From the NCBI RefSeq assembly GCF_055900595.2, contig NZ_CM148325.1: a stretch of 64,000 nt of DNA; one strand, written 5' to 3'. The notes beneath the pieces were generated by a model. The model ran no database searches and was not told where the DNA came from. It saw only the letters and a list, made by a program, of their open reading frames with translations. Positions 35,826-54,780 of the stretch are shown here, piece after piece. Each line of letters opens with the position of its first letter. Position 1 is the first letter of the stretch. The translations under genes and the position numbers were made by a program.

Positions 35826-36995
35826 TTATATTTCATTTAAAAGATCGTAATCATACGTATATTCTTTGCTAATAAAACGACACTCGTTGAAGCTAAATTC
35901 ATCGTCTGAAAAGGAATTGTCAACAGAATCTCTTTCTTCCTCCAGGCTATTATCTGAAAGCAAGTCGTTTGAGTTAGTATAATCTAGGTTGTAATCGACA
36001 GTATAATTAATTTCTGGATTGGTTTGGTAATCATTTTTTTTGACGCAATCATATTCCTCAATAATTTTGTCGATATAATCATATGCTTTTTCTAATGAGA
36101 AGTTTTTCATCTCTGGTAATTTAACTTTGCTCAAATAATTATTAATTTTTGAGGAGTTTTTATATATGCTTTTTGTTAATTCTTTTTCTAATTTGTCTGT
36201 TATATTTGCTGTTGGTATGGATTTTATAATCGCATATCTCATGATTTTTAATTGATCTTCGGTTAAATCTCCAAGCTCATTTAAACAACTTTCGACAAAG
36301 TTGATTTTTTCTCTGGAATAATCATCGCTGATACTTGTTAACGCTGGGGTGATTTTTAATAAAGAATTCCATGAGATAGTACCATTGTGTGTCGAACGCA
36401 TAAAATTTATATTGTACATATTGGTTTTAGTAAACTTTGTTGCAAACAATGTAAAGGGATCTAAAGTCGCGTAAGCCATATGTTTATTTGAAAAATCATA
36501 ACCAGTTAAATCGACGTTATGCAAGTCCAGATAGGATAAATCTATTACGTCGCCTGCTCCAGAGCTAAAGATTACATTTAATCTTCTGATTTCATTGTAA
36601 ATTCCCTCTAATGAACAATTTGTGTTCATGATGTCTGCTGAAATTTTTATGTTATTTAACGGTTCACAAATTATAAGCTTGCAGGTATTGTCTGATCGTT
36701 GCGTTATTTGGGCATTATAACCTAAAAAGTCTATGCGAAGAGACGAGTTATTATAAAGTATTACATTTTTTAAGTATGCTAATTCTTGTTGAAAATCACC
36801 ATCGATAATACATGTTCCACCAGGTTGCAACGCGCAGATTAACGTGAGCATTTGATTAGAAGTCTGTTTTAGTTTTACTACACCTGGTGCTAGTGCTTTG
36901 AGGTCATTTATTATGGGGGTTTCAGGAATGTCATTCATTTTTATACGTACTAAATCATTACCTAAGTCATTACCTATTGATGAAACCGGGAACAT
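35826..36995 (-). CDS. yhaC: Uncharacterised protein YhaC, AT-rich gene (389 aa here)
   Basis: Long ORF with Asn/Ile/Tyr/Lys/Asp-rich composition and low GC; pentapeptide-repeat-like stretch (DLSYLDLHNVDLTGYDFS); acidic Ser/Asp/Glu-rich C-terminus. Confidence 0.8.
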   Translation of the reverse strand: MFPVSSIGNDLGNDLVRIKMNDIPETPIINDLKALAPGVVKLKQTSNQMLTLICALQPGGTCIIDGDFQQELAYLKNVILYNNSSLRIDFLGYNAQITQRSDNTCKLIICEPLNNIKISADIMNTNCSLEGIYNEIRRLNVIFSSGAGDVIDLSYLDLHNVDLTGYDFSNKHMAYATLDPFTLFATKFTKTNMYNINFMRSTHNGTISWNSLLKITPALTSISDDYSREKINFVESCLNELGDLTEDQLKIMRYAIIKSIPTANITDKLEKELTKSIYKNSSKINNYLSKVKLPEMKNFSLEKAYDYIDKIIEEYDCVKKNDYQTNPEINYTVDYNLDYTNSNDLLSDNSLEEERDSVDNSFSDDEFSFNECRFISKEYTYDYDLLNEI

Positions 36996-37016
36996 TATTT
37001 TATCCTTTTTAAATAA

Positions 37017-37556
37017 TCAATGAGAATCATGATTAAAATGATCTGGTGAAAAAAAGAGAATTTGCCAACAATCTGAAACATTGTCAGTTTTATTAAAATG
37101 ATTAAATTCCGTTAAGATAACTTCTTTTTGCGTGAACTTTGCGCAAAACTTAAAAATTGTCTCCTTGATACACTCCAGATCTTTTCTATTGATGGCTGAA
37201 CAAGTACATTTTTCGCCAAAAGGTGAAAATGTGCCTACATCTAAAGTTTGTATTATATAATCATCATTTACTCCTGTAGAAATATCTATGATGAATGGAC
37301 TTCTATTTTCCGGTTGGATTCGGATCATTACAGAAGAAACATCACCTTTATAGACATTCAATGCAGTAATCGCAGATAATATTCTCCGCAATTCATTGCT
37401 TATGCTGTAAATTTCATTAACGTCATTTGTCGATATAATCTCGGCAAATTTTATTTTTACCTTCCAATAATCAATGTTTCTATTATAAGTGTTAACAGTT
37501 TCGTACATTGGTGGTATCGAAGGGGGTAAAAAATGTGAAACCGAATAACCTTTCAT
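37017..37556 (-). CDS. yhaB: Uncharacterised protein YhaB (179 aa)
   Basis: AT-rich ORF 21 bp downstream of yhaC on the same strand; start placed at MKGYSVSHF (37556); ORF track extends to 37586. Confidence 0.75.
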   Translation of the reverse strand: MKGYSVSHFLPPSIPPMYETVNTYNRNIDYWKVKIKFAEIISTNDVNEIYSISNELRRILSAITALNVYKGDVSSVMIRIQPENRSPFIIDISTGVNDDYIIQTLDVGTFSPFGEKCTCSAINRKDLECIKETIFKFCAKFTQKEVILTEFNHFNKTDNVSDCWQILFFSPDHFNHDSH

Positions 37557-37794
37557 TGATGCCTGCCTTGTCATCATGACAAACAATAATCAATGCTTAT
37601 TTTCCTTGCACGGTTCGCTCACAACTATCAAAAAACGCTCAATTACCTGGCATTACAGTCAACGAAGCAAAATTCTGTGGTCTACAACGATGTAAAGCAC
37701 AACGAAAATCCTCCTTGTTCTCTTATTCTGATCGTATAGCGATGAACATCAATTATTCGTTTTGTGATCATCAACACAAAATGCTATTTAGTAA

Positions 37795-38169
37795 CTATGG
37801 TGACAGTAGAAACGAGGGGAAACGATTGCATTCACAAAATGACGTCCTGTAAGAAGGGTGAAAGTTGATGTTAATCAATTGTTCGAGATGATCAATATCT
37901 GTATTCGAAATTTTAAAACATTGATAAAATAAATGTTTGCCCTCCAACAAATAGCGAGAAAAAATGTGACGTGCCGCATTATTTATCGCTGAAAATGATT
38001 TATTTATAATAAAATTTGATAACTTGCTCATAAAATTTAACTCAAAATTTGCCTGGTAATTATCCGCTAATTGCTTGAAATATGGTCGCAGCTGCTTTTT
38101 TTTATTAACCACATAACGAATGATGTTATCGCCATAAAATATGGTTATCCCTGTCATTTTTTTTGACAA
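37795..38169 (-). CDS. tdcR: Putative threonine dehydratase operon activator TdcR; start codon uncertain
   Basis: AT-rich ORF divergent from tdcA at the position where tdcR lies; in-frame alternative starts at MTGITIFYG and MSKLSNF; the annotated protein may be shorter than the 124-aa ORF. Confidence 0.55.
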   Translation of the reverse strand: MSKKMTGITIFYGDNIIRYVVNKKKQLRPYFKQLADNYQANFELNFMSKLSNFIINKSFSAINNAARHIFSRYLLEGKHLFYQCFKISNTDIDHLEQLININFHPSYRTSFCECNRFPSFLLSP

Positions 38170-38266
38170 AAATCAGGGTTTATGCTGATTTATATACTTT
38201 AACTTATTGATATATAAAAGCATTTAATTGATACAGTGATATCCAGAAAAGTATTGAAAGTTAATT

Positions 38267-38282
38267 TGTGAGTGGTCGCACA
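38267..38282. promoter_or_regulatory. Candidate CRP site in the tdc promoter
   Basis: TGTGA-gtggtc-gCACA (one mismatch from TGTGA-N6-TCACA), about 70 bp upstream of the tdcA ATG; tdc is known to be cAMP-CRP dependent. Confidence 0.5.
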
Positions 38283-38345
38283 TATCCTGTTCATTTCATT
38301 TTGATACACTTCATGCCGTCAATGAGGTTATTAACGTAGGTAGTT

Positions 38346-39284
38346 ATGAGCACTATTCTTCTTCCGAAAACGCAGCATCTGGTAGTCTTTCAGGAAGTCA
38401 TTAGAAGTGGCTCTATCGGCTCGGCTGCAAAAGAATTAGGGTTAACTCAACCCGCCGTCAGTAAAATCATTAACGATATTGAAGACTATTTTGGTGTGGA
38501 ATTAGTGGTGCGGAAAAATACCGGTGTAACATTAACACCTGCCGGTCAATTGTTACTCTCCCGTTCCGAATCCATTACCCGTGAAATGAAAAATATGGTG
38601 AATGAGATAAGCGGTATGTCTTCTGAGGCGGTGGTGGAAGTCTCGTTTGGTTTTCCTTCATTGATTGGTTTTACTTTTATGTCCGGGATGATCAACAAGT
38701 TCAAAGAGGTGTTCCCGAAAGCGCAGGTTTCTATGTATGAAGCGCAACTGTCTTCGTTCCTACCGGCAATCCGCGACGGTCGCCTGGATTTTGCGATTGG
38801 TACGTTAAGCGCAGAAATGAAGCTTCAGGATTTACATGTTGAGCCACTGTTCGAGTCCGAGTTTGTGCTGGTAGCCAGTAAGTCCCGAACATGCACCGGC
38901 ACCACCACGCTGGAGTCGTTGAAGAACGAACAGTGGGTGTTGCCACAAACCAATATGGGGTACTACAGCGAGCTGCTCACCACGTTACAAAGAAATGGCA
39001 TCAGTATTGAAAACATCGTTAAAACCGACTCAGTCGTGACAATTTATAATCTTGTTCTCAATGCTGATTTCTTAACTGTAATTCCTTGTGATATGACTTC
39101 ACCTTTTGGTTCTAATCAATTTATTACTATTCCGGTTGAAGAAACATTACCTGTGGCACAATATGCCGCGGTATGGTCGAAAAATTATCGTATTAAAAAA
39201 GCAGCATCGGTTTTGGTGGAATTAGCCAAAGAGTATTCATCTTATAATGGGTGTAGACGAAGGCAATTAATTGAAGTTGGTTAG
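38346..39284 (+). CDS. tdcA: LysR-family transcriptional activator TdcA (312 aa)
   Basis: Translation recognised as TdcA; N-terminal HTH. Confidence 0.95.
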   Translation: MSTILLPKTQHLVVFQEVIRSGSIGSAAKELGLTQPAVSKIINDIEDYFGVELVVRKNTGVTLTPAGQLLLSRSESITREMKNMVNEISGMSSEAVVEVSFGFPSLIGFTFMSGMINKFKEVFPKAQVSMYEAQLSSFLPAIRDGRLDFAIGTLSAEMKLQDLHVEPLFESEFVLVASKSRTCTGTTTLESLKNEQWVLPQTNMGYYSELLTTLQRNGISIENIVKTDSVVTIYNLVLNADFLTVIPCDMTSPFGSNQFITIPVEETLPVAQYAAVWSKNYRIKKAASVLVELAKEYSSYNGCRRRQLIEVG

Positions 39285-39382
39285 TTATTTGTTTTTATTT
39301 AAACATAAATAATCCACCTGTCTGTTTTGCAGGTGTCGGTTACGGTTACCTACATATTTAATTCAGGCTAAGAGGTTTTATA

Positions 39383-40372
39383 ATGCATATTACATACGAT
39401 CTCCCGGTTGCTATTGATGACATCATTGAAGCAAAACAACGACTGGCTGGGCGAATTTATAAAACAGGCATGCCTCGCTCCAACTATTTTAGTGAACGTT
39501 GCAAAGGTGAAATATTCCTCAAATTCGAAAACATGCAGCGTACCGGTTCATTTAAAATTCGTGGCGCATTTAATAAATTAAGTTCACTGACCGATGCGGA
39601 AAAACGTAAAGGTGTAGTGGCCTGCTCTGCGGGCAACCATGCGCAAGGGGTTTCGCTCTCCTGCGCGATGCTGGGTATCGACGGTAAAGTGGTGATGCCA
39701 AAAGGCGCGCCGAAATCCAAAGTAGCGGCAACGTGCGACTACTCCGCTGAAGTTGTTTTGCATGGTGATAACTTCAACGACACTATCGCTAAAGTGAGCG
39801 AAATTGTCGAAATGGAAGGCCGTATTTTTATCCCACCTTATGATGATCCGAAAGTGATTGCCGGTCAGGGAACGATTGGTCTGGAAATTATGGAAGATCT
39901 CTATGATGTCGATAACGTGATTGTGCCAATTGGCGGTGGCGGTTTAATTGCTGGTATTGCGGTAGCGATTAAATCAATTAACCCGACTATTCGTGTTATT
40001 GGTGTACAGTCAGAAAACGTTCACGGCATGGCGGCTTCTTTCCACTCCGGAGAAATAACCACGCACCGAACTACCGGCACCCTGGCGGATGGTTGTGATG
40101 TCGCCCGCCCGGGTAATTTAACTTACGAAATCGTTCGTGAATTAGTCGATGACATCGTGCTGGTCAGCGAAGACGAAATCAGAAACAGTATGATTGCCTT
40201 AATTCAGCGCAATAAAGTCGTCACCGAAGGCGCAGGCGCTCTGGCATGTGCTGCATTATTAAGCGGTAAATTAGACCAATATATTCAAAACAGAAAAACC
40301 GTCAGTATTATTTCCGGCGGCAATATCGATCTTTCTCGCGTCTCTCAAATCACCGGTTTCGTTGACGCTTAA
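39383..40372 (+). CDS. tdcB: Catabolic threonine dehydratase TdcB (PLP-dependent; 329 aa)
   Basis: PLP-lysine context SFKIRGA in translation. Confidence 0.95.
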
Positions 40373-51195: not shown

Positions 51196-52092
51196 ATGGC
51201 CAAAGAAAGGGTATTAACGCTGGAAGCACTACGGGTTATGGATGCGATCGATCGCCGGGGCAGTTTTGCGGCGGCGGCGGATGAGCTGGGACGCGTGCCT
51301 TCCGCACTTAGCTACACCATGCAAAAACTAGAAGAAGAGCTGGATGTGGTGTTGTTTGACCGCTCGGGCCATCGCACCAAATTCACCAATGTCGGGCGAA
51401 TGTTGCTGGAGCGAGGGCGCGTTTTGCTGGAAGCCGCAGATAAACTGACTACCGATGCGGAAGCTCTCGCGCGCGGTTGGGAAACGCATCTCACCATTGT
51501 GACCGAAGCGCTGGTACCGACACCTGCCTTTTTCCCGTTAATTGACAAACTGGCGGTAAAAGCCAATACCCAACTGGCAATCATCACTGAAGTGCTGGCA
51601 GGGGCGTGGGAACGGCTGGAGCAGGGGCGGGCGGATATTGTTATCGCGCCGGATATGCATTTTCGCTCCTCGTCGGAGATCAACTCGCGCAAACTCTATA
51701 CCTTAATGAACGTCTATGTTGCCGCGCCTGATCACCCGATTCATCAGGAGCCGGAACCGTTATCTGAAGTGACGCGCGTGAAATATCGTGGAATTGCGGT
51801 GGCGGATACCGCTCGTGAGCGCCCGGTGTTGACCGTACAGCTGCTGGACAAACAGCCGCGCTTAACGGTGAGCACGATTGAAGATAAACGTCAGGCATTA
51901 CTGGCGGGGCTTGGCGTGGCGACGATGCCGTATCCGATGGTCGAAAAAGATATTGCGGAAGGGCGGTTGCGTGTCGTCAGCCCGGAATCGACCAGCGAGA
52001 TCGATATTATTATGGCCTGGCGTCGTGACAGTATGGGGGAAGCGAAATCCTGGTGTCTGCGGGAAATTCCCAAACTTTTTAGCGGAAAATAA
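51196..52092 (+). CDS. yhaJ: LysR-family transcriptional regulator YhaJ (298 aa)
   Basis: Translation recognised as YhaJ; N-terminal HTH. Confidence 0.9.
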   Translation: MAKERVLTLEALRVMDAIDRRGSFAAAADELGRVPSALSYTMQKLEEELDVVLFDRSGHRTKFTNVGRMLLERGRVLLEAADKLTTDAEALARGWETHLTIVTEALVPTPAFFPLIDKLAVKANTQLAIITEVLAGAWERLEQGRADIVIAPDMHFRSSSEINSRKLYTLMNVYVAAPDHPIHQEPEPLSEVTRVKYRGIAVADTARERPVLTVQLLDKQPRLTVSTIEDKRQALLAGLGVATMPYPMVEKDIAEGRLRVVSPESTSEIDIIMAWRRDSMGEAKSWCLREIPKLFSGK

Positions 52093-52109
52093 TATTTGTT
52101 ATTTTTAAT

Positions 52110-52132
52110 AAAAAGGGGCGAAATATCGCCCC
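52110..52132 (-). terminator. Hairpin terminator downstream of yhaI (also 3' of yhaJ)
   Basis: ggggcg-aaatat-cgcccc; on the minus-strand transcript the hairpin is followed by UUUUU. Confidence 0.55.
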
Positions 52133-52142
52133 AATTCTAAGA

Positions 52143-52499
52143 TTAATTTGAACCAAACTTCGGATCGTTTCCGTAACGATTGCTGCCAGAATTGCCTTCT
52201 AAACAGGCAAATACAAACAGAACTAACCAGCCAATGACCGGTACCAGATAGAGAAGCGCCCACGCACCTGAACGGTCAGTATCGTGCAGACGACGAACGC
52301 ACAGAGCAATGACCGGAATGATTGTTGCTGCCAGGTAAATGAGAGAAAGGAATGGAAACTCTAAACCTAAAATCAATTGAATGACATTGATAATAGTGCC
52401 GACGATGGCGTTAATCAGAGTAAACATCCAGTACTCTTTACGACGTGCACGACCAGAGAAACCAACATAATTTTTTAATACGGCTAAATACAACTGCAT
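52143..52499 (-). CDS. yhaI: DUF805 inner-membrane protein YhaI (118 aa)
   Basis: Paralog of YhaH (shared LKNYVGF-GRARRKEYWMF…RRLHDTDRS motifs). Confidence 0.85.
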   Translation of the reverse strand: MQLYLAVLKNYVGFSGRARRKEYWMFTLINAIVGTIINVIQLILGLEFPFLSLIYLAATIIPVIALCVRRLHDTDRSGAWALLYLVPVIGWLVLFVFACLEGNSGSNRYGNDPKFGSN

Positions 52500-52740
52500 A
52501 AAAACATCCCTTTAATTAAAAGTTGCGAAAGTCTATTCCGGAGATGGAGTAAATGCTATTCGTATCTTTCTTTTTCGGATGTTATAAAGGTTTTGATATT
52601 TAAGATAAATACATGGCCGTTTTTTATATGTAATTTATATAACGACATTGAAATAATTTAAATAAACATTAGTAGATTATTTATTCATCAACATGATGAT
52701 AAAAGCCGGATGAGTCAGACATCCGGCGAGGAGATTTGTT

Positions 52741-53106
52741 TTAAGGTTCCAGTTTCGGATCTGGTCCAAAGCGGTTTTCGCCTGGCGTACCTGCCTGGCA
52801 GTTAAAGACGATGATAATCAGCCAGCCGATAAACGGAATTAAGAACAGCAGTGCCCACCACGCCGAGCGGTCGGTGTCGTGCAGGCGGCGGAACTGAACT
52901 GCCCACCATGGTAAAAACACCAGAATACCGTAGATTGTCGTCAGGATGCCTTCGCCACCGGCGCGTTGCCAGCCTAACATTTTATCCAGCAGCCCCAGCA
53001 CGAACGTAAAGATGATGTTGACCAGAATAAACATCCAGTACTCTTTGCGCCGCGCACGGCCCCGGAAACCGACATAATTTTTTAGTACTTTCAGATACCA
53101 GTCCAT
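52741..53106 (-). CDS. yhaH: DUF805 inner-membrane protein YhaH (121 aa)
   Basis: Start at MDWYLKVLKNYV (53106); paralog of YhaI. Confidence 0.85.
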   Translation of the reverse strand: MDWYLKVLKNYVGFRGRARRKEYWMFILVNIIFTFVLGLLDKMLGWQRAGGEGILTTIYGILVFLPWWAVQFRRLHDTDRSAWWALLFLIPFIGWLIIIVFNCQAGTPGENRFGPDPKLEP

Positions 53107-53229
53107 TTTTGCCTCAATTTTGCTCAATCACTTGTTTTTAAAGCAGCAAATTAAGAATAGACGTGAATGAAATGGCAGTAAATATTATCTCGATGAATTA
53201 ATAAGGCGCTGTGAAGGATAAGGGCAAGC

Positions 53230-53352
53230 GCAAAATTGCCAGATGCGCTACGCTTATCTGGACTGCGCGGTCATTGCAACATATTGAATATAAATGTTTT
53301 GTAGGTTTGATAAGGCGTTTACGCCGCATCCGACATGAACAACACGCACTTA
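53230..53352. repeat. Diverged copy of the REP module found upstream of yqjG
   Basis: gcaaaattgccagatgcgctacgcttatctgg…attgaatataaatgttttgtaggtttgataaggcgtttacgccgcatccgacatgaacaacacgcactt aligns by eye with the 54397-54780 repeat units. Confidence 0.55.
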
Positions 53353-53388
53353 GCTAATTATCAGAGGCACCTCGTAAGGTGCCTTTTT

Positions 53389-54375
53389 TTAACCGAAGCG
53401 AACATCTCGTCCATGCGGTTCATCGAGATCCTGCCACGGACCAATTGAAATAATCCCCGTAGGGTTGATGGTCTTATGGCTGCGGAAGTAATGATTACGG
53501 ATGTGATCGAAATTGACGGTTTCGGCAATTCCCGGCATCTGGTAGATATCGCGCAGGAAGCCATACAGATTCAGGTAATCGCTGATGCGGTGCTTATCAC
53601 ACTTGAAGTGGGTCACATACACTGGATCAAAACGCACCAGCGTGGTCCACAGGCGAATATCGGCTTCGGTTAGCTGGTTGCCGGTCAGGTAACGGTGCTG
53701 ACCTAAAATCTGTTCCAGTCGCGCCAGCGATTCAAACACTTTCGCCACCGCCTCGTCGTAGGCTTGCTGGCTGGTGGCAAAACCGGCTTTATACACGCCA
53801 TTGTTAACGGTGTCGTAAATCCAGCCATTAAGTTCGTCAATTTTCGTTTGCAGGGCTGAAGGGTAGTAATCTCCAGCTTTCGCACCCAGCGCATCAAACG
53901 CGGTATTAAACATGCGGATGATTTCCGCTGATTCGTTGCTGACAATGGTGTGGTTCTTCTTGTCCCAGAGTACGGGAACAGTAACTCGTCCGCTGTAGTG
54001 TGGATCGGCGTGGAGATAAAGCTGATACAGAAATTCATGTTGATAGAGCGTATCGCCGGTTGCTCCCGGAAAACTGTCATCAAAGGTCCAGCCGTTTTCC
54101 AGCATTAACGGGTTCACTACGGAAACGGAAATAAACGGTTCCAGCCCTTTGAGTTTACGCATGATCAGCGTGCGGTGCGCCCACGGGCAGGCGAGTGAAA
54201 CATAGAGATGATAACGATCTTTCTCTGCGGCAAAACCGCCTTTGCCAGTGGGGCCTGGCGCGCCATCGGCAGTGAGCCAGTTACGAAATGCGGAAGCTGA
54301 ACGTTGAAATTTACCGCCGGTGGATTTGGTGTCGTACCAGGTGTCATGCCAGACGCCGTCAATCAGTTGACCCAT
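53389..54375 (-). CDS. yqjG: Glutathionyl-hydroquinone reductase YqjG (Xi-class GST; 328 aa)
   Basis: Start at MGQLIDGVWHD (54375) with GGAGGAGAG SD; the ORF-track 448-aa version is an artefactual upstream extension through the tandem repeats. Confidence 0.9.
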   Translation of the reverse strand: MGQLIDGVWHDTWYDTKSTGGKFQRSASAFRNWLTADGAPGPTGKGGFAAEKDRYHLYVSLACPWAHRTLIMRKLKGLEPFISVSVVNPLMLENGWTFDDSFPGATGDTLYQHEFLYQLYLHADPHYSGRVTVPVLWDKKNHTIVSNESAEIIRMFNTAFDALGAKAGDYYPSALQTKIDELNGWIYDTVNNGVYKAGFATSQQAYDEAVAKVFESLARLEQILGQHRYLTGNQLTEADIRLWTTLVRFDPVYVTHFKCDKHRISDYLNLYGFLRDIYQMPGIAETVNFDHIRNHYFRSHKTINPTGIISIGPWQDLDEPHGRDVRFG

Positions 54376-54396
54376 TTTTCTCTCCTCCAATAGCAA

Positions 54397-54780
54397 AAAC
54401 GAGGAGCGTTTCTCCTCGTTTGAGACTGATGGCAAACGCAAAACTGCCTGATGCGCTATGCTTATCAGGCCTACGAGGTTTCTGCAATGTATTGAATTTG
54501 CATGTTTTTGTAGGCCGGATAAGGCGTTCACGCCGCATCCGGCATGAACAACGTGCACTTTGTCAACAATCTGAAACGAGGAGCGTTTCTCCTCGTTTGA
54601 GACTGATGGCAAACGCAAAACTGCCTGATGCGCTATGCTTATCAGGCCTACGAGGTTTCTGCAACGTATTGAATTTGCATGTTTTTGTAGGCCGGACAAG
54701 GCGTTCACGCCGCATCCGGCATGAACAACGCGCACTTTGTCAACAATCTGAAACGAGGAGTGTTCCCCCTCGTTTTTTAT
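54397..54780. repeat. Tandem array (about 2.2 copies) of a 177-bp composite unit: perfect hairpin plus REP pair
   Basis: Units begin at 54397, 54574 and 54751 (partial); each carries aaacgaggagcgtttctcctcgttt followed by REP units (gcctgatgcgctatgcttatcaggcctac…gtaggccggataaggcgttcacgccgcatccggca); the two full copies differ at 3 positions. Confidence 0.8.

Follow-up and report, generated by a model that had tools for sequence, protein, structure and literature searches.

The yhaH and yhaI genes, which encode two small membrane proteins of the DUF805 family, lie head-to-tail on the minus strand of the window (the whole 64,000-nucleotide stretch of contig NZ_CM148325.1, RefSeq assembly GCF_055900595.2, that was analyzed) and are separated by an AT-rich spacer. 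Our results suggest that they are probably two separate single-gene units under separate control, yhaH being a core gene and yhaI a member of an old paralog lineage carried on an optional cassette. Both genes are already annotated members of a known family, and the pair itself is ordinary.

The DNA of the window is that of E. coli. The 1.4-kb region of the locus was matched in 5,422 of 5,426 complete E. coli genomes, where the underlying RefSeq annotation reads yqjG, yhaH, and yhaJ, with either yhaI or a 'DUF805 domain-containing protein' that bears no gene name between the last two. The names yhaI and yhaH, which the original prediction had given without database searches, agree with these labels and are right because the K-12 gene order (yqjF-yqjG-yhaH-yhaI, the convergent yhaJ, then yhaK) and the corresponding Pfam assignments (DoxX, GST-like, DUF805, DUF805, LysR, and pirin) are reproduced in the window. 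The pair shares with K-12 yhaH (b3103) and yhaI (b3104) the slot between yqjG and yhaJ, the strand, the gene lengths, and the terminators. A 2024 survey of uncharacterised E. coli genes placed both genes in a dense uncharacterised cluster with repeat sites around it (PMC11551758). The automatic listing of open reading frames (ORFs) extended the start of yhaH to a TTG at 53127.

The paralogy that had been proposed from the sequence was borne out: in a pairwise BLASTP comparison, YhaH and YhaI shared 62 of 118 residues (53%, E 3e-43), a similarity far beyond chance, and the quoted N-terminal (VLKNYVGF[S/R]GRARRKEYWMF) and central (RRLHDTDRS..WALL) motifs are present in both proteins. Both match end to end PF05656 (DUF805), a three-helix membrane family of roughly 110 amino acids (aa) and of unknown function, with 108.5 bits for YhaI (profile positions 1-110 of 111) and 120.9 bits for YhaH (positions 1-111 of 111), the gathering cut-off being 25.7 bits. 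Nothing sets the window proteins apart from this family; the periplasmic loop of YhaH (WQRAGGEG) is longer, as a feature specific to its clade.

With presence defined as at least 80% coverage, yhaI and the spacer were found in 4,357 of the 5,426 genomes (about 80%), and about 1,060 genomes were without yhaI. Comparison with the yhaI-less strain Ecol_276 gave exact junctions for the variable segment, which lies between the penultimate codon of yhaH and the stop codon of yhaJ: positions 52094-52745 are replaced by a 40-bp filler with a different hairpin, and the YhaH protein of filler strains ends in ...LEQE rather than in ...LEP. With a 120-bp probe that spans the filler junction, this allele was detected in 1,008 genomes (about 19%), including CFT073. 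CFT073 and NC101 belong to phylogroup B2. No mobility genes or repeats stand beside the cassette, and its flanks are core chromosomal genes, none of them of phage origin. A search for a donor returned no close yhaI homolog from phage and plasmid collections; the 'plasmid' records matching yhaI at 96-97% are chromosome-sized or very large E. coli records, probably chromosomal DNA filed as plasmids. The closest non-Escherichia protein, from Superficieibacter, is 64% identical to YhaI.

This polymorphism can be read in two directions. That the Escherichia ancestor had both genes, and that deletion later removed the cassette from E. albertii, from Escherichia sp. E1V33, and from CFT073-type E. coli, is a possibility that we take seriously without favouring it. 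The layout with both genes is older than Escherichia, and the cassette flanks, 98-99% identical to those of the yhaI-less strain, carry no foreign divergence. However, the same filler hairpin (AAGCACCTTGTAAAAGGTGCTT) is found in E. albertii, E1V33, and yhaI-less E. coli and, because it is shared, a single empty state in the ancestor explains the pattern more parsimoniously than three deletions would. In E. albertii, E1V33, and another E. coli-labelled representative genome this hairpin is sometimes split by a repetitive extragenic palindromic (REP) sequence. Salmonella and Klebsiella are single-copy as well, the cassette is low in GC, and one of its alleles has an imported core with saturated synonymous divergence (dS), all of which speaks against loss. 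We therefore lean towards gain by most E. coli rather than loss in CFT073-type strains, because the empty state is shared with the sister species.

Beyond Escherichia, DUF805 genes have come and gone across the Enterobacteriaceae in the slot between yqjG and yhaJ; the latter gene, which bounds the slot on its right-hand side, was syntenic in every enterobacterial locus examined. The slot holds yhaH only in Salmonella, K. pneumoniae, and Silvania; yhaH and a yhaI-type gene with a 224-bp spacer in C. amalonaticus; a yhaI-type gene alone in Intestinirhabdus alba; yhaH and a separate yhaH-like duplicate in Lelliottia and Huaxiibacter; and three or four DUF805 genes, yhaI-type genes among them, in two Superficieibacter species. 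The yhaI-type proteins are 58-73% identical among themselves and 50-59% identical to YhaH, and the YhaH orthologs of the same genomes are 74-87% identical. In a neighbour-joining tree, the YhaH clade had short branches and 83% bootstrap support. The presence of yhaI-type genes in the same slot of other genera and this pattern of identities indicate that the duplication is old; the copies were differentially lost, and the pace of evolution is two to three times higher in the I lineage.

A recent local tandem duplication, in which yhaI would derive from the E. coli yhaH and would then have diverged, is highly improbable. The two genes are adjacent, co-oriented, similar in length, and 53% identical, and, in Lelliottia and Huaxiibacter, a separate pair does look as if yhaH had been duplicated. 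Nevertheless, the same slot is filled in three other genera by yhaI-type genes of 58-66% identity, whose ribosome-binding region and terminator are conserved, and the identity of E. coli YhaI to DUF805 proteins of Actinomycetes or Bacilli (53-58%) is no lower than that to its neighbour YhaH (53-56%). The GC content at third codon positions also differs by 22 points (41% in yhaI, 63% in yhaH). These results largely refute a recent duplication: yhaI is an old, faster-evolving paralog lineage. As a separate observation, the Superficieibacter slots (L003 2697-4357 and L004 2769-4830, with three and four DUF805 genes, respectively) include one very divergent DUF805 type, whose identity to YhaH and to YhaI is about 33%, and their spacers contain REP-like insertions.

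Within E. coli, the two genes also differ in their variability. Compared with K-12, YhaH is 100% identical at the amino acid level, with no nonsynonymous divergence (dN = 0), whereas YhaI is 83% identical: the window carries the other major allele. DNA identity to K-12 drops to 74-86% within yhaI, as against 93-100% in most of the flanking 100-bp bins. The window-type allele (at least 94% identity) was found in about 2,300 of the 5,426 genomes and the K-12-type allele (87-88% identity) in about 2,060; RefSeq gives the name yhaI to the K-12-type allele and leaves the window-type unnamed. The two classes are separated by a core of about 180 bp (codons 46-105) in which dS between the window and K-12 is 1.45 and dN 0.20 (dN/dS 0.14), as compared with a dS of 0.07 for codons 1-45 and identity (dS 0) for codons 106-118. 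This mosaic profile of dS along the gene shows that one class carries a core imported from a distant yhaI-type gene. Protein databases contain both classes as well as recombinants between them (e.g., P0004 and P0007). Two other origins of the variable core were considered and rejected: gene conversion by yhaH, to which the two cores are only 53% and 56% identical in amino acids, and positive selection, given the dN/dS of 0.14. To judge from the substitution pattern, the imported core is still under purifying selection.

The spacer had been described in the original prediction as 241 bp long, strongly AT-rich, and containing a hairpin terminator, and it is all three. Its length is exactly 241 bp and its GC content 29.5%, compared to 42.9% for yhaI, 52.2% for yhaH, 36.8% for the cassette, and 50.7% for the whole window; it is 93-95% identical to the K-12 spacer. 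The terminator scan found the hairpin at 52727-52705 (GCCGGAUG-N7-CAUCCGGC, then UUUUAUCAUC), beginning 13 nt past the yhaH stop codon. Its fold (-15 kcal/mol, z-score -4.93) was matched in stability by none of 200 shuffled sequences, and its stem is identical in K-12. The hairpin that follows yhaI is comparably stable (-16.3 kcal/mol, z-score -4.83 against shuffled sequences), and a homologous hairpin (GGGGC...GCCCC) lies 3' of the yhaI-type genes of C. amalonaticus and Intestinirhabdus. Both E. coli hairpins have the form of intrinsic terminators, a GC-rich stem-loop followed by a U-run. A 30-aa ORF on the minus strand of the spacer (52556-52648) is also intact in K-12, where two residues are substituted; no Shine-Dalgarno sequence could be recognised for it, and it is probably spurious.

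Published expression data set the two genes apart. In enterohemorrhagic E. coli, yhaI was the gene most strongly activated by Ler (36-fold) outside the LEE (locus of enterocyte effacement); yhaH was not among the activated genes that the paper names (PMC3891560). Upon overproduction of CpxR in K-12, yhaI was upregulated 3.2-fold on arrays and 40.3-fold by quantitative PCR, and yhaH 1.9-fold (PMC2731931). In Salmonella, whose slot holds yhaH only, a yhaH fusion covering positions -43 to +45 was repressed by the small RNA (sRNA) SdsR, and the YhaH protein rose toward the stationary phase (PMC5137417).

These data also bear on whether yhaH and yhaI form one operon, in which the hairpin would be an attenuator or a processing site and the level of yhaI would be set by read-through, an arrangement that we consider improbable. 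The two genes are on the same strand, the interrupted U-tract of the yhaH terminator could leak, the spacer yielded no consensus promoter, and 'yhaH yhaI yhaJ' is given as a putative unit in the CpxR study, with all three genes upregulated (PMC2731931); this grouping, however, defines no operon because yhaJ is on the opposite strand. Co-transcription is also difficult to reconcile with an induction that differs at least 20-fold between yhaI and yhaH in the same study (PMC2731931), with the Ler response of yhaI, and with the strength of the hairpin. In addition, the yhaI-type gene of Intestinirhabdus is found behind a similar AT-rich upstream region and, since it stands alone, a promoter of its own is required there. 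The best reading of the locus is thus one of two insulated units that differ in their control.

Candidate promoters can be proposed for both units. The position of the candidate yhaH promoter fits the 43-nt leader of the Salmonella yhaH::gfp fusion (PMC5137417). Upstream of yhaI, a -10-like TAGACT hexamer aligns with TATACT, TATATT, and TAGACT in other genera; the -35 of this candidate proximal promoter is poor, as would be expected for an activator-dependent or silenced promoter. An alignment of yhaI upstream regions showed a second block, ATCAAAACCTTTATAACATCC, to be common to E. coli and both Superficieibacter species, and the ribosome-binding block TTAATTAAAGGGATGTTTTTATG is conserved in the yhaI-type genes of C. 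amalonaticus and Intestinirhabdus. Rfam holds DUF805 and DUF805b RNA motifs; a scan of 51900-53500 with Rfam 15 (E up to 5) gave no covariance match to these motifs upstream of the DUF805 genes, and returned four sub-threshold unrelated hits, with nothing in the spacer. The best of them, a partial match to naRNA4, a REP-derived RNA, lies outside the spacer at 53304-53340.

Silencing by H-NS may be considered for yhaI. Ler antagonises H-NS on AT-rich DNA, and both the spacer and the cassette are AT-rich with respect to the window, as are H-NS-silenced loci. Silencing of yhaI by H-NS fits this AT content and the action of Ler as an H-NS antagonist, the two points from which we infer it.

Several results weigh against the present reading of the locus. 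A sigma-70 consensus scan of 51900-53500 (threshold 9/12) gave no site when 2.9 were expected by chance and, because of this, the candidate yhaI promoters are proposed from conservation across genera. A search of the spacer for the H-NS nucleation motif returned one unremarkable match with two mismatches. The CpxR box (GTAAA-N5-GTAAA) likewise had only a two-mismatch match in the spacer, on the opposite strand (52662-52676), a class that is common in the window (76 found, 51 expected), and yhaI does not have the box upstream of a promoter that marks the direct CpxR regulon. The authors of the CpxR study themselves state that many effects may be indirect and that many targets have no box (PMC2731931). 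An interruption of the U-tract in the yhaH terminator (UUUUAUCAUC) makes some read-through from yhaH possible. As regards the paralog lineage, the I clade had less than 40% bootstrap support and long branches in the neighbour-joining tree, and the deep nodes were unresolved. The interpretation in the original prediction is thus supported in part. Its suggestion of independent promoters is supported indirectly, by a strong terminator behind each gene and sharply different published expression, but not by any spacer promoter in the sigma-70 scan, and H-NS control is likewise supported only indirectly; its suggestion of stress control agrees with the published response of yhaI to CpxR overproduction, but a direct role of Cpx finds no support.

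If the two units are separately controlled, the locus would work as follows. Transcripts of yhaH, which would have its own promoter, rise in the stationary phase, and be trimmed by SdsR, would stop at the hairpin 3' of the gene, and a weak promoter situated in the spacer's proximal half would drive yhaI. H-NS bound to the AT-rich DNA would keep this promoter silent until Ler, as an H-NS antagonist, opened it; Cpx envelope-stress signalling may also do so, probably indirectly. More tentatively, YhaH would be a platform that is constitutively present in the membrane and is exploited by some phages as they enter, and YhaI an alternative subunit induced by stress or virulence signals.

Table 1. 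Positions of the genes and elements of the yhaH-yhaI locus, numbered from the first letter of the window.
Feature	Positions	Strand	Description
yhaJ	51196-52092	+	LysR-type regulator convergent with yhaI; Pfam HTH_1 and LysR_substrate; RefSeq annotation
Accessory cassette	52094-52745	-	652 bp, 36.8% GC; last codon and stop of yhaH, terminator, spacer, yhaI, yhaI terminator
yhaI terminator hairpin	52115-52132		GGGGCGA-UAUU-UCGCCCC; between convergent yhaI and yhaJ; terminator scan
yhaI	52143-52499	-	DUF805 inner-membrane protein, 118 aa and stop; accessory, fast-evolving copy, allele class 1 here
Mosaic core of yhaI	52185-52364	-	Codons 46-105: end of loop 1, second transmembrane helix, cytoplasmic loop, third transmembrane helix; separates the allele classes
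AT-rich spacer	52500-52740		241 bp, 29.5% GC; contains the terminator of yhaH and, presumably, the promoter and leader of yhaI
yhaI Shine-Dalgarno	52507-52512	-	AAGGGA; assigned from the sequence
-10-like hexamer	52530-52535	-	TAGACT; starts 36 nt and ends 30 nt 5' of the yhaI ATG; candidate proximal promoter
Upstream block	52577-52597	-	ATCAAAACCTTTATAACATCC; contains the -10-like TATAAC; candidate distal promoter or regulator site
yhaH intrinsic terminator	52695-52727	-	8-bp stem, 7-nt loop, then UUUUAUCAUC; terminator scan
yhaH	52741-53106	-	DUF805 inner-membrane protein, 121 aa and stop from the ATG; conserved core copy
Candidate yhaH promoter	53154-53182	-	TTTACT, 17-nt spacer, TATTCT; 8/12 to consensus; putative

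The AlphaFold2 model of YhaI, built on an alignment of 82 DUF805 sequences that included both window proteins, had a mean confidence score (pLDDT) of 89.3 and was consistent with a small three-helix membrane protein, with a short N-terminal helix followed by three long predicted helices (20-44, 50-73, and 78-99), the third of which is kinked at the invariant proline P87. Eight other positions are invariant in this alignment (R17, R20, E22, R69, R70, L71, H72, and D73), and the motifs that mark the family, an N-terminal GRxxRxEYW and an RRLHD after the second helix, are both present. The mean number of basic residues (K+R) is 5.3 in the N-terminal segment, 0.2 in loop 1, 3.0 in loop 2, and 2.0 in the C-terminal tail, a distribution from which the positive-inside rule predicts an N-in/C-out topology. 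The GRxRRxEYW and RRLHD motifs would thus come together on the cytoplasmic face. A YhaH-GFP (green fluorescent protein) fusion was localised to the membrane (PMC3225971), but YhaH was included in a screen limited to proteins with predicted or measured cytoplasmic C-termini, which conflicts with the predicted topology (PMC3225971).

Gene neighbourhood gave no lead to function: among 100 neighbours of DUF805 genes from about 55 non-enterobacterial loci, 122 Pfam families were counted, none of them in more than four proteins, and the orientation of the neighbours was random. The neighbours thus had nothing in common, and a DUF805 gene is typically a stand-alone gene. Searches against anti-phage defence profiles (PADLOC-DB) gave no family matching YhaH or YhaI at E values up to 1.

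Some inner-membrane proteins act as phage host factors after adsorption, as ManYZ or PtsG do for lambda DNA entry. YhaH resembles them in that its mutation blocks two phages: according to one preprint and one follow-up paper, an E. coli TK001 mutant with a frameshift or stop in yhaH is resistant to phages PhiWec188 and PhiWec190 and can be infected again when complemented. The authors of the phage study described YhaH as a required inner-membrane protein. Under automated annotation, either paralog may be called yhaH. The statement that the DUF805 family has no established function still holds, though the preprint reports two phages needing yhaH.

We propose only tentatively that DUF805 proteins are N-in membrane platforms whose cytoplasmic motif face would bind a partner or an anionic lipid, with a constitutive, phage-exploited YhaH and YhaI as its inducible alternative subunit. 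That they would instead form oligomeric channels or exporters for small solutes or ions is, in our opinion, somewhat less likely still. It is a distant and speculative prospect that YhaI is a switchable partner or decoy of YhaH which, once H-NS silencing is lifted by Ler in attaching-effacing strains or by envelope stress, would join YhaH or take its place in the inner membrane and so alter YhaH-dependent traits, including susceptibility to the phages that need YhaH, and that the presence/absence polymorphism and the two old allele classes of the transmembrane core are maintained by balancing selection exerted by phages or the niche.

The yhaI cassette may also be compared with phage morons and H-NS-bound islets. 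It shares with them a compact promoter-gene-terminator organisation (the promoter being presumed), a low GC content, variability between strains, and the activation of yhaI by Ler. It differs from morons in lying outside a prophage and without flanking mobility genes or repeats, and is thus not a moron, and its likeness to H-NS-bound islets is suggested by its AT content and Ler response only. DUF805 proteins also match a PHROG whose category is 'moron, auxiliary metabolic gene and host takeover'. An intact, unannotated DUF805 ORF of up to 129 aa, 38.5% identical to YhaI, was observed in the Shiga toxin (Stx) phage 75/02 of Shigella (L085 2453-2842) and also in POCJ13; it lies in the nin region, antisense to its neighbours, in a moron-like placement.

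REP-type sequences were observed at several places around the locus. The stem of the yhaH terminator (GCCGGATG...CATCCGGC, 52705-52727) opens like a REP element (GCCGGATGCGGCG...), and the corresponding site in Escherichia genomes without yhaI carries insertions of full REP copies, which hints that such sequences take part in the remodelling of the yqjG-yhaJ slot. The DNA between yqjG and yhaH (53200-53388) is REP-like and is 84-91% identical to K-12, with indels. Between yqjG and yqjF, a 177-bp unit of the REP or bacterial interspersed mosaic element (BIME) type is repeated in tandem (54397-54775, 2.1 copies, 97% match); K-12 and Ecol_276 do not have the extra 350 bp or so of this repeat. The mechanical 448-aa ORF at 53389-54735 (minus strand) corresponds to yqjG (328 aa, start 54375) extended through these repeats, and the repeated peptide strings in several ORFs near yqjG are translated REP DNA and not genes. 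Elsewhere in the window, a 3.6-kb AT-rich block (36001-39600, 29-36% GC) covers tdcR and the position of yhaB and yhaC. This block is about 88% identical to most E. coli, reaches at least 95% identity in only 27 of the 5,426 genomes, and has two 'hypothetical proteins' in place of yhaB and yhaC in the closest of them.

Taken as a pair, yhaH and yhaI amount to the textbook annotation of two uncharacterised 'y' genes, to which the present analysis adds little. Its added value lies in the identification of yhaI and the spacer as a compact, low-GC, strain-variable cassette that carries an old paralog lineage in two allele classes. This is a modest population-genomic point, accompanied by experimental handles, rather than a novel type of system. 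Strains that naturally have no yhaI, CFT073 among them, are available as controls, and the published links of YhaH to phage infection and of yhaI to the Ler and Cpx regulons may offer a route to a first function for this widespread family.

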